This document shows, piece by piece, positions 37,614 through 41,849 of a DNA stretch of 64,000 nt; position 1 is the stretch's first letter; the number at the start of each line of letters is the position of its first letter. This DNA comes from Escherichia coli (GTDB lineage Bacteria > Pseudomonadota > Gammaproteobacteria > Enterobacterales > Enterobacteriaceae). Under the pieces are notes generated by a model. It did no database searches. It was not told the DNA's origin and was given only the letters and a program-made list of their open reading frames with translations. The stretch lies in the NCBI RefSeq assembly GCF_003334335.1, contig NZ_QOWQ01000017.1, one strand, 5' to 3'. A program made the translations under genes and the position numbers.

Positions 37614-38407
37614 TCATAATAATTGCGGCGGCGCAAAGCGACGGTTGTTTAAGACGGGCAGTTGCGCGCGCACCTGACGCACACGTTCGGGCGTCACTTC
37701 CGCCATAATGAGTGCAGGCATTTCTGACGCTGCCGCAATGGTGACGCCAAAGGGATCTATAATCCGGCTTTGACCGATATTTTTGTTCCCGCACTCCCCC
37801 GCCGCCACCATATAACAGGTGGTATCCAGCGCACGAGCGGCAAGCAACGTTGACCAGTGATGCTCTTTGAGCGGCCCGCGAACCCAGGCGGCAGGAAGTA
37901 CCAGGATTTCAGCTCCCTGTAATGCCTGTGCCAGCGCCAGCTCTGGAAAGCGTAAGTCATAACAGGTCATCAGCCCGACCTTCATCCCTTCCACCTCCAG
38001 TAACGGAGCGATTTCATTACCAGCATCAACACGGCGTGATTCCTGAATGGCAAATGCATCATAGAGATGCAGTTTGGCATAACGGGCGACGATGTTTCCT
38101 GCCTGAAGTGCCACCAGCATATTCCATGCGCGCCCCGGCGTTGAAGGAACATGAATCGTCAGAATTGTCGTCATCATGTTACGTTTACTTTCTCGCCGTA
38201 AAGTCCGAGGAATTCGCCTTCCAGCAGCTGTGCTGATTTAACCGATAGATCTGCATCATGATCATCGCGCGCCAGCAATGCTTCCGGCAGGACAAACAGC
38301 GATACGTCGTTTTCCGCCGCCTGCGCCATCAACGAGGCACAAATCTCAGCGTTCTTTTCCCACACAGATGTAACAGCAAACTGTCCTGCGGCAACCAGCA
38401 TTGCCAC
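37614..38407 (-). pseudogene. ybeM: C-N hydrolase (nitrilase-superfamily) gene disrupted by frameshift
   Basis: Two adjacent minus-strand ORFs (38174-38407 and 37614-38177) read as N- and C-terminal parts of one C-N hydrolase; frames differ by one nt at about 38175-38180. Confidence 0.75.
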
Positions 38408-38882: not shown

Positions 38883-38911
38883 AAAAAAAACCCGCTGATT
38901 AAGCGGGTTTT
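38883..38911. terminator. bidirectional rho-independent terminator between crcB and cspE
   Basis: aaaaaaaacccgc-tgattaa-gcgggtttt. Confidence 0.75.
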
Positions 38912-38930
38912 GAATTCTTGCTGACGTATC

Positions 38931-39140
38931 TTACAGAGCGATTACGTTTGCAGCAGAAGGGCCTTTGGCACCGTTAGTGATTTCGAACTCTACGCGCTGA
39001 CCTTCAGCAAGAGTTTTAAAACCATTAGTCTGGATTGCAGAGAAGTGTACGAACACGTCTTTGCTGCCGTCTTCCGGAGTAATGAAACCGAATCCTTTGG
39101 ACTCATTAAACCACTTAACGTTACCTTTAATCTTAGACAT
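38931..39140 (-). CDS. cspE: cold-shock-domain protein CspE
   Basis: 69 aa from internal ATG ([12 protein letters not shown]...); RNP1 motif KGFGFI. Confidence 0.93.
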
Positions 39141-39314
39141 CAAAATTACCTTTACATGAAAAATAGACACAAATGCTGTGTCGGTTACCAGTACACCAAT
39201 TGTGGTACGCTTTGTCCAGTGTAACTTTACTAAAAAGTGATAAAAGTCGCGTTATTTTTGATGTTACTTATTTTAGCTATTGATTTTAAAGAAGTTACTA
39301 AAACTTCATTTGTC

Positions 39315-39875
39315 TCAAAACTGAAAGCGCATCCAGGCAAAGTACACATTGCCATTGTTGTAGGTACCCGGAATGTAGGTCATCTGAAAAGTCACTGGGC
39401 CATAACCCACGGAGGCCAATGGCAGTAGAACCGGGAGAGGGATGTAATTCCAGTTATCGCGTGCCGTTACGCCAGCGGTGAATCCCAGACCTAAATGAAA
39501 ATTTTCATCCGCCAGCGGTCGCCAGGTACTTTCCCATCCGTATCCGGCAATCGGTTCCCATTTGTTCCACGAGTCCTTAAATGCCATGGCATACAGGCCA
39601 TGCCAGTTTCCTTTTTCATCCCAACGCGACAGGCCAAAACCGCCACCCCACGGTCGCTCGTTATAGCGATCGGTTTTTTCTTTGTCGTAAGCGAAACGTG
39701 CATGCCAGGTGATGGCAGGAATATATAAATCATAATGTTCAGGCTGTTGCCAGGTTTGTGCAATATTTTCTCTAAACGTTGTCATCCACTCATCTGCGTT
39801 AGCAAAAACTTTACCAACGCTGATTAACTGAATAAAAACAAAGGAAAAGATAGCGACATATTTACTCACGTTCAT
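39315..39875 (-). CDS. pagP: lipid A palmitoyltransferase PagP (outer membrane)
   Basis: 186 aa from MNVSKY start with signal peptide; recognised. Confidence 0.92.
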
Positions 39876-40360
39876 TTGTGACCATAAAACATTTATCAAA
39901 AATCTACTACTAGCATAGCAAAGCTACAATTAACATAACCTTAATAGACCCAACATAAAGAATAATCTGAATAGCTGCTCTATTTATTTCCGCTTGTTCA
40001 AGTTAAATATTTCCGCGCATCGATTAAAGATGATGCGTCGTTTTCTGCGATGGGAATAGTCAAAAAAGAAAAACCAAGTCTTTTTTGATGACAAAATGCA
40101 ATCAAGGAAAAATTATTTTATTTTTTAACGAGATACAACAATCATCTTAACGAAGTATATAATATATATCGTCAACCTATGCTCATATTAGATTATTTTT
40201 TGAGCGCACAGCCGCAGCTAACACCATTGCAATTAACAAATTTGCATCAATCCACCATCAATTTGCACACATTATTATGTGATAATTGCCAACCGCTAAA
40301 TATGCGTTTTGTTATCTATGTATAAAAACAGCAACTTCAATGTCTTAATGGCAGTTTTTA

Positions 40361-40374
40361 TTGATTTTAATCAG
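40361..40374 (+). promoter_or_regulatory. FNR-like site TTGAT-N4-ATCAg upstream of dcuC
   Basis: 9/10 match to FNR consensus TTGATnnnnATCAA about 95 bp upstream of the dcuC start; dcuC is known to be anaerobically induced via FNR. Confidence 0.45.
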
Positions 40375-40463
40375 CATTCATCGCCAATTTATTGGGCATA
40401 TTTTTTCCTTAAGCTTTAGGAATTTTTTATTATTTACTTTGGGGCCTGGAGACAGGAAAAATT

Positions 40464-41849
40464 ATGCTGACATTCATTGAGCTCCTTATTGGGGTTGTGG
40501 TTATTGTGGGTGTAGCTCGCTACATCATTAAAGGGTATTCCGCCACTGGTGTGTTATTTGTCGGTGGCCTGTTATTGCTGATTATCAGTGCCATTATGGG
40601 GCACAAAGTGTTACCGTCCAGCCAGGCTTCAACAGGCTACAGCGCCACGGATATCGTTGAATACGTTAAAATATTACTAATGAGCCGCGGCGGCGACCTC
40701 GGCATGATGATTATGATGCTGTGTGGATTTGCCGCTTACATGACCCATATCGGCGCGAATGATATGGTGGTCAAGCTGGCGTCAAAACCATTGCAGTATA
40801 TTAACTCCCCTTACCTGCTGATGATTGCCGCCTATTTTGTCGCCTGTCTGATGTCTCTGGCCGTCTCTTCCGCAACCGGTCTGGGTGTTTTGCTGATGGC
40901 AACCCTATTTCCGGTGATGGTAAACGTTGGTATCAGTCGTGGCGCAGCTGCTGCCATTTGTGCCTCCCCGGCGGCGATTATTCTCGCACCGACTTCAGGG
41001 GATGTGGTGCTGGCGGCGCAAGCTTCCGAAATGTCGCTGATTGACTTCGCCTTCAAAACGACGCTGCCTATCTCAATTGCTGCAATTATCGGCATGGCGA
41101 TCGCCCACTTCTTCTGGCAACGTTATCTGGATAAAAAAGAGCACATCTCTCATGAAATGTTAGATGTCAGTGAAATCACCACCACTGCTCCTGCGTTTTA
41201 TGCCATTTTGCCGTTCACGCCGATCATCGGTGTACTGATTTTTGACGGTAAATGGGGTCCGCAATTACACATCATCACTATTCTGGTGATTTGTATGCTG
41301 ATTGCCTCCATTCTGGAGTTCCTCCGCAGCTTTAATACCCAGAAAGTTTTCTCTGGTCTGGAAGTGGCTTATCGCGGGATGGCAGATGCGTTTGCTAACG
41401 TGGTGATGCTGCTGGTTGCCGCTGGGGTATTCGCTCAGGGGCTTAGCACCATCGGCTTTATTCAAAGTCTGATTTCTATCGCTACCTCGTTTGGTTCGGC
41501 GAGTATCATCCTGATGCTGGTATTGGTGATTCTGACAATGCTGGCGGCAGTCACGACCGGTTCAGGCAATGCGCCGTTTTATGCGTTTGTTGAGATGATC
41601 CCGAAACTGGCGCACTCTTCCGGCATTAACCCGGCGTATTTGACTATCCCGATGCTGCAGGCGTCAAACCTTGGCCGTACCCTTTCGCCCGTTTCTGGCG
41701 TAGTCGTTGCGGTTGCCGGGATGGCGAAGATCTCGCCGTTTGAAGTCGTAAAACGCACCTCGGTACCGGTGCTTGTTGGTTTGGTGATTGTTATCGTTGC
41801 TACAGAGCTGATGGTGCCAGGAACGGCAGCAGCGGTCACAGGCAAGTAA
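40464..41849 (+). CDS. dcuC: anaerobic C4-dicarboxylate transporter DcuC
   Basis: 461 aa polytopic membrane protein; recognised. Confidence 0.93.
   Translation: MLTFIELLIGVVVIVGVARYIIKGYSATGVLFVGGLLLLIISAIMGHKVLPSSQASTGYSATDIVEYVKILLMSRGGDLGMMIMMLCGFAAYMTHIGANDMVVKLASKPLQYINSPYLLMIAAYFVACLMSLAVSSATGLGVLLMATLFPVMVNVGISRGAAAAICASPAAIILAPTSGDVVLAAQASEMSLIDFAFKTTLPISIAAIIGMAIAHFFWQRYLDKKEHISHEMLDVSEITTTAPAFYAILPFTPIIGVLIFDGKWGPQLHIITILVICMLIASILEFLRSFNTQKVFSGLEVAYRGMADAFANVVMLLVAAGVFAQGLSTIGFIQSLISIATSFGSASIILMLVLVILTMLAAVTTGSGNAPFYAFVEMIPKLAHSSGINPAYLTIPMLQASNLGRTLSPVSGVVVAVAGMAKISPFEVVKRTSVPVLVGLVIVIVATELMVPGTAAAVTGK

Follow-up and report, generated by a model that had tools for sequence, protein, structure and literature searches.

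The dcuC gene of Escherichia coli encodes a succinate exporter and is a textbook member of the FNR regulon. Among described systems, its promoter is closest to class II FNR promoters such as those of dmsA, yfiD, ynfE, nikA and pykA, in which the FNR site stands at -40.5 or -41.5 (Myers 2013, Table 1). These promoters and dcuC share the same TTGAT-N4-ATCAA-type inverted repeat, a weak -10 element with no recognisable -35 element, anaerobic FNR-dependent induction and occupancy in vivo, and the spacing from the site to the putative -10 element of dcuC is identical to theirs. Unlike them, dcuC has a start that is only predicted, a right half-site that never reads ATCAA in the 84 loci compared here, and a promoter located at one margin of a spacer enriched in H-NS. 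The other anaerobic C4-dicarboxylate carrier genes, dcuB-fumB and dcuA, have products functionally related to that of dcuC. The dcuB gene is, like dcuC, FNR-bound and anaerobically induced, but its top FNR site lies at -132.5, unlike that of dcuC. Expression of dcuB reportedly needs DcuS-DcuR and fumarate and is repressed by glucose; dcuC is said to be independent of DcuR and not to be glucose-repressed.

The divergent neighbour of dcuC, pagP, is reportedly dependent on PhoP in E. coli. Its counterpart in Salmonella, a PhoP promoter of 'architecture IV' (Zwir 2012), carries a homologous direct repeat with TGTTAA-type halves at 11-bp spacing; a -10 element stands at the same offset in both species, TATTAT in Salmonella and, by prediction, TATGCT in E. 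coli, where the two halves of the repeat are TATTAA and TGTTAA. A further group of related systems is formed by genes that are silenced by H-NS and counter-silenced by SlyA or RcsB, namely E. coli pagP itself, hlyE and Salmonella pagC, all of which have an AT-rich, H-NS-enriched upstream region, as is the case here. Unlike these genes, the spacer between pagP and dcuC hosts at one end an FNR site that is occupied despite H-NS.

The pagP-dcuC spacer and its genomic context

The spacer was analysed within a 64-kb stretch of E. coli DNA, referred to in full as the window. It occupies positions 39876-40463, between the divergent ATG codons of pagP (39875, minus strand) and dcuC (40464, plus strand), and comprises 588 bp with about 31% G+C, or 0.29-0.35 in 200-bp windows compared with about 0.5 in the flanking genes. 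The length, coordinates and AT-richness given in an earlier sequence-only reading of this DNA were thus correct. The near-repeats mentioned there do exist as short two-copy matches, but such matches are typical of AT-rich DNA, include no tandem repeat and carry no information. The spacer has no RefSeq annotation and no Rfam match. Used as a 588-bp query, it matched strain 300709 at 100% identity and K-12 MG1655, from which it differs by one base, at 99.8%; it was found in 5382 of 5426 complete genomes and is single-copy in E. coli genomes. The gene order around it is ybeM (frameshifted), crcB, cspE, pagP (minus strand), dcuC (plus strand), dpiA and dpiB. A likely Shine-Dalgarno sequence of dcuC, AGGA at 40454-40457 (plus strand), ends 6 nt before the ATG and is invariant in four E. 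coli alleles.

Published positions were transferred by a coordinate map, in which the U00096.2 coordinate equals 695,655 minus the window coordinate and which rests on the identity of the 14-mer described below. The start of cspE, which we take to lie at 656,515 in U00096.2, agrees with this map.

Several features of the neighbourhood were observed in passing. The ybeM gene (deaminated glutathione amidase; 37614-38407, minus strand) is split into two open reading frames, as it is in K-12, in which RefSeq labels the gene frameshifted, whereas the other E. coli strains fetched have an intact copy. The leader and gene of cspE (38883-39325, minus strand) match the Rfam cspA thermoregulator family RF01766, the only hit of the Rfam scan, with 124 bits and an E value of 7e-33. 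By the coordinate map, the strongest Cappable-seq start near cspE (U00096.2 656,590, score 431) falls at about 39065, some 75 nt inside the cspE coding sequence (38931-39140, minus strand), and a very strong sigma-70 ChIP peak at 656,472 falls about 43 bp upstream of the cspE ATG. In E. coli MINF_8D, the spacer is interrupted about 150 bp from its pagP end by an IS1 element, and the remaining spacer, dcuC, dpiA and dpiB are deleted, so that pagP is joined to citC.

Published occupancy of an FNR motif upstream of dcuC

The sequence-only reading had singled out a 9/10 match to the FNR consensus TTGAT-N4-ATCAA at 40361-40374, and both its sequence, TTGATTTTAATCAG, and its coordinates proved exact. 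The centre of the motif, at 40367.5, lies 96.5 bp upstream of the dcuC ATG. Matches of this quality are not rare: with at most one mismatch allowed, the consensus occurs eight times in the 64-kb window compared with 2.9 expected, most of these sites being surely non-functional, and an equally good match arose in 9.2% of 5000 dinucleotide-preserving shuffles of the spacer. By itself, the motif is therefore weak evidence and not beyond chance. These figures would suit a reading in which the match is an accident of AT-rich DNA and the anaerobic induction of dcuC is indirect. What raises the site above chance is its published occupancy in vivo together with its conservation.

The occupancy was reported in the genome-wide study of Myers 2013 (PMC3688515). 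Table S6 of that study lists, at 655281, the predicted and bound FNR site CTGATTAAAATCAA, which is the reverse complement of the 14-mer in the window, with a PatSer score of 12.38 and an ln p of -10.96, above the precision-recall threshold. An FNR ChIP-seq summit at 655,298, within about 10 bp of the 14-mer, was assigned to dcuC with one FNR motif, and a ChIP-chip peak was placed at 655,340; the FNR ChIP signal that the sequence-only reading had called for as a check is thus present at the site in both kinds of data. In the same study, dcuC belongs to Category 1, 'directly activated', is listed as 'Activated' in the RNA-seq comparison of the wild type with an fnr mutant (Table S8) and has an aerobic/anaerobic expression ratio of 0.05, and Zientz 1999 is cited for FNR-regulated dcuC expression. 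A dcuC-lacZ fusion was likewise FNR-dependent under anaerobic conditions (Oberto 2009). The supplements of the ArcA/Fnr ChIP-chip study of Federowicz 2014 mention neither dcuC nor pagP. An FNR site upstream of dcuC, as the sequence-only reading proposed, is therefore borne out by in vivo binding of the exact 14-mer and by direct activation of the gene.

The only base of the spacer that differs from K-12 MG1655, position 40360, lies directly 5' of the FNR half-site. Here the window carries A (TTTTTATTGAT), the base that predominates in other genera, whereas MG1655 and the three further E. coli alleles fetched carry C. The exact 100-bp promoter sequence of the window is common to at least 109 complete E. 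coli genomes (megablast).

Conservation of the site across enterobacterial dcuC loci

We compared the upstream regions of dcuC from 80 species representatives of about 20 enterobacterial genera and from four E. coli alleles, giving 84 loci. The genera include Escherichia, Citrobacter, Salmonella, Enterobacter, Klebsiella, Raoultella, Lelliottia, Leclercia, Buttiauxella, Pluralibacter and Mangrovibacter; Salmonella was represented by S. enterica subsp. arizonae, other Salmonella not being among the 80 kept. A pair of the TTGAT-N4-(A/G)TCA(G/T) type was found within 350 bp upstream of dcuC in all 84 loci, and a pair of the same type occurred in just 0.8% of shuffled upstream regions. The left half reads TTGAT in 82 loci. 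The right half reads ATCAG in 63, GTCAG in 16, ATCAT in 4 and GTCAT in 1, and the consensus ATCAA was found in none of the 84 at the positions orthologous to 40370-40374 of the window. The N4 takes 13 forms and the flanks vary. Such constancy of the pair amid variable neighbouring bases, and the published ChIP-seq and ChIP-chip peaks on this very sequence, contradict a chance match with indirect induction, and we regard that explanation as almost certainly wrong. On the strength of occupancy, expression and conservation, 40361-40374 is very likely the operator at which FNR brings about the anaerobic induction of dcuC.

Within this set, the last base of the right half-site is kept sub-optimal across genera. 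In S. enterica subsp. arizonae, where the site also lies 96.5 bp upstream of dcuC, the left half reads GTGAT in place of TTGAT, and it is this G that separates CRP-type from FNR-type half-sites.

When the loci were stacked without gaps on the site, the only blocks with at least 90% conservation were the two half-sites and a GGCAcATT block, in a stack that is anchored on the motif itself and is drawn from related species, so that the 84 loci are not independent. A hexamer CAnATT or TACATT is found at exactly +36 to +41 from the start of the site in 82 of the 84 loci, and CACAAT one base closer to the site in the other two; the 14 bp between site and hexamer are not conserved. The distance from the site to the dcuC ATG ranges from 61.5 to 157.5 bp, with 334.5 bp in one locus. 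Given this wide range, it is the leader that varies in length and the spacing from the site to the putative -10 element that is fixed. Within E. coli, 5377 of 5398 genomes show an identity of 95% or more over the dcuC-proximal 100 bp (blastn).

A run of A residues at 40322-40328, about 28-38 nt upstream of the FNR site and about -76 to -86 from the predicted dcuC start, is shared by Escherichia, Citrobacter, Enterobacter and Lelliottia but not by Klebsiella. This run could serve as an alpha-CTD-contacting or UP-like tract.

Predicted geometry of the dcuC promoter

The fixed hexamer suggests a -10 element of dcuC, CATATT at 40397-40402 (plus strand), which is CACATT in most genera. It is a poor one, with three to four of six positions matching. 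If the hexamer is taken as -12 to -7, the FNR site is centred at -41.5; the start predicted from this geometry, at 40409-40412 (plus strand), places the centre at -41.5 to -44.5 and gives a 5' untranslated region of about 52-55 nt. FNR was found in the class II position in 19 of 23 activated promoters with known starts (Myers 2013). A published anaerobic sigma-70 ChIP-seq peak at 655,235 maps to about 40,420, roughly 11 bp from the predicted start. The anaerobic rise in sigma-70 that was statistically tested under the label dcuC/pagP (Myers 2013) concerns the peak at 655,742, which is adjacent to pagP, and not this dcuC-proximal peak. The supplements of Kim 2012 list no start for dcuC or pagP, and the plus-strand Cappable-seq data hold no start in the pagP direction at 655,3xx-655,9xx. 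The literature searched contained no mapped dcuC start, and none that is incompatible with the site. The class II placement proposed from sequence thus gains support from the spacing of the hexamer, fixed in 82 of 84 loci, and from the nearby sigma-70 peak. We consider it probable that the site acts as a class II operator with a start near 40409, the exact start and the class II contacts being those that we infer from this geometry.

An alternative is that the operator is genuine but not of class II, with the start lying distally or further downstream, in which case FNR would act from a class I site, from a remote one or chiefly through displacement of H-NS. Myers 2013 annotated dcuC with the remark 'TSS not in peak region', and the start site known to those authors therefore lay elsewhere. 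A distal candidate exists in ATGACA-17-AATTAT at 40088-40116 (plus strand), the only promoter-like match of our consensus scan in the spacer, which was proposed as a dcuC-direction promoter from RpoD holoenzyme SELEX (Shimada 2014); moreover, the FNR site lies within an H-NS ChIP-chip region. Against this stand the -10-like hexamer at exactly the class II distance, the sigma-70 peak next to the class II start, and the position of the distal candidate in the least conserved stretch of the spacer, where it is altered in other E. coli alleles and is probably not functional as a dcuC promoter. The FNR ChIP signal at this spacer also speaks against the alternative, being nearly equal in the wild type (0.87) and an hns/stpA mutant (0.86) (Myers 2013, Table S7). 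Taken as a whole, we judge the non-class II alternative distinctly improbable.

According to the preferred class II model, a [4Fe-4S] FNR dimer would bind 40361-40374 of an FNR-dependent sigma-70 dcuC promoter when oxygen is lacking. With its centre some 41.5 bp upstream of the start, where it overlaps the -35 region, it would recruit and activate RNA polymerase at the weak -10 element CATATT (40397-40402), and dcuC would be transcribed from about 40409-40412, behind a leader of some 55 nt.

The pagP promoter at the opposite end of the spacer

Upstream of pagP, at 39930-39946 (minus strand), lies the direct repeat TATTAAggttaTGTTAA, which is of the PhoP-box type and also fits an ArcA-type repeat. 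It is the only sequence in the 64-kb window that matches TGTTAA-N5-TGTTAA with at most one mismatch, and its halves differ at three positions from the PhoP consensus (T/G)GTTTA-N5-(T/G)GTTTA. A predicted -10 element of pagP, TATGCT at 39912-39917 (minus strand), follows 12 nt downstream of the repeat and would place the start at about 39905. The same arrangement, a TGTTAA-type direct repeat followed after 12 nt by a TAnnAT-like hexamer, is found upstream of pagP in other genera. In Salmonella, the PhoP box of pagP has been footprinted and a -10 element TATTAT reported (Zwir 2012); TATTAAggttaTGTTAA is homologous to that box and TATGCT occupies the position of TATTAT, which was seen in the S. 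enterica arizonae locus of our comparison. The published sigma-70 ChIP-seq peak at 655,742, with an occupancy of 37 aerobically and 366 anaerobically, maps to about 39,913, on the predicted -10 element. The pagP promoter would thus consist of a PhoP-type direct repeat and a -10 element within 70 bp of the pagP ATG, and the spacer outside the dcuC promoter would belong mainly to pagP.

The anaerobic behaviour of pagP raises the question of a shared control. Its transcript (listed as crcA) is about 3.4-fold higher anaerobically and the sigma-70 occupancy at the pagP-proximal peak rises 10-fold, as would be expected if the FNR site were a bidirectional element that also raises pagP. However, the site lies about 460 bp from the predicted pagP start, at a distance from pagP that differs between genera (about 180 to 800 bp), and pagP is absent from the operons that differ between the wild type and the fnr mutant (Myers 2013, Table S8). 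In an arcA mutant, dcuC is down 4.1-fold and pagP 2.8-fold, and the latter change points to ArcA, acting directly or indirectly. A bidirectional FNR element is accordingly highly unlikely.

We also considered that the pagP repeat at 39930-39946 is read by both PhoP and ArcA-P, making the spacer a two-way anaerobic control region in which FNR would activate dcuC while ArcA-P, bound to the PhoP box at the opposite end, would raise pagP. If true, this would explain why pagP rises 3.4-fold anaerobically and independently of FNR, why sigma-70 next to it increases 10-fold under anaerobic conditions and why pagP drops 2.8-fold in the arcA mutant. In the data of Park 2013, the region upstream of dcuC/crcA contains an ArcA weight-matrix site scoring 15 bits or more, yet it gave no ArcA ChIP peak. 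An ArcA SELEX peak at 655,330, which coincides with an SdiA SELEX peak, maps to about 40,325, nearer to dcuC and not to the repeat. We regard dual reading of the pagP repeat as unlikely.

H-NS and candidate inputs by ArcA and other factors

The sequence-only reading had taken the length and composition of the spacer as signs of nucleoid-protein binding or of extra regulatory inputs, and published data agree on both counts. Two anaerobic H-NS ChIP-chip regions, 654,590-655,558 and 655,584-656,283 (Myers 2013, Table S3), map to 39,372-41,065 and cover the whole spacer, which was flagged as H-NS-bound in the RpoD SELEX study as well (Shimada 2014). Mutation of hns raised the expression of a pagP-lacZ fusion 18-fold, and the pagP promoter region was described as containing three putative SlyA sites (Chalabaev 2014); together with the ArcA and SdiA SELEX peaks, the latter sites are candidates for the additional inputs. 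Table S6 of Myers 2013 lists the FNR site as one that lacks nucleoid proteins, though the H-NS region of Table S3 spans it. H-NS thus coats the AT-rich DNA between the two promoters and silences pagP.

The block TTTTGTTATCTATGTATAAAAACAG at 40308-40332, about 90 bp upstream of the predicted dcuC start, is a candidate ArcA-binding area, at which the ArcA SELEX peak (about 40,325) maps. It holds a weak TGTTA-type repeat with three mismatches and is conserved in Escherichia species only, not in other genera. Roles of ArcA and of the A-tract in the spacer are put forward here as putative. Scans with consensus strings found no CRP site (TGTGA-N6-TCACA with at most two mismatches) anywhere in the spacer and no match to the NarL heptamer, IHF or SlyA consensus; only weak matches came up for the RcsB-type box and for the high-affinity H-NS motif.

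The centre of the spacer

Between the two promoters, the stretch at 40025-40215 is poorly conserved, variable in length among lineages and present as two deep haplotypes in E. coli. Across 40076-40175, identity to three other E. coli alleles is 80-87%, compared with 96-100% in the flanking genes, and 1755 of 5377 E. coli genomes are only 80-90% identical there; both ends of the spacer are nearly invariant within the species. The total length of the spacer ranges from 281 to 899 bp across genera, with 281-307 bp in Klebsiella and Raoultella, 403 bp in Salmonella enterica arizonae, mostly 411-465 bp in Citrobacter, 558-588 bp in Escherichia and up to 899 bp in Enterobacter. The centre of the spacer is thus under little sequence constraint.

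The centre is diverged even where PagP and DcuC are identical to those of K-12, for example in strain DSM 103246, and by a rough estimate its divergence is about twice that expected for unconstrained sites from the flanking coding sequence. Relaxed constraint, recombination and selection are candidate causes.

Other elements that could be drawn from the sequence did not withstand comparison. A terminator-like hairpin at 40015-40038 has its arms disrupted in other E. coli alleles, with no compensatory changes, an AT hairpin at 40060-40088 falls in the hypervariable centre and is not conserved, and a 48-amino-acid open reading frame at 40179-40325 lacks its start codon in one E. coli allele and carries a frameshift in a second. 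These elements, like the distal promoter candidate, are regarded as non-functional because they are not conserved or are disrupted in other alleles. Neither a small RNA, a small protein nor a mobile element was found in the spacer by Rfam search, open reading frame conservation and copy number, respectively. Since the centre is unconserved, the length lineage-specific and the ends nearly invariant, the long spacer is best described as two compact promoters joined by AT-rich, H-NS-binding filler, and not as a dense array of conserved operators.

Discussion

The FNR site described here had already been published in a genome-wide table, and the role of H-NS on the pagP side is published as well. 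To these, our analysis adds an argument for class II activation from the comparison of 84 loci, a predicted -10 element and start for dcuC, a base-level map of the spacer and the recognition of its unconstrained centre as two deep haplotypes in E. coli. These additions are mostly bookkeeping and leave the understanding of the locus unchanged; the predicted -10 element and start could help the curators of EcoCyc and RegulonDB to place dcuCp.
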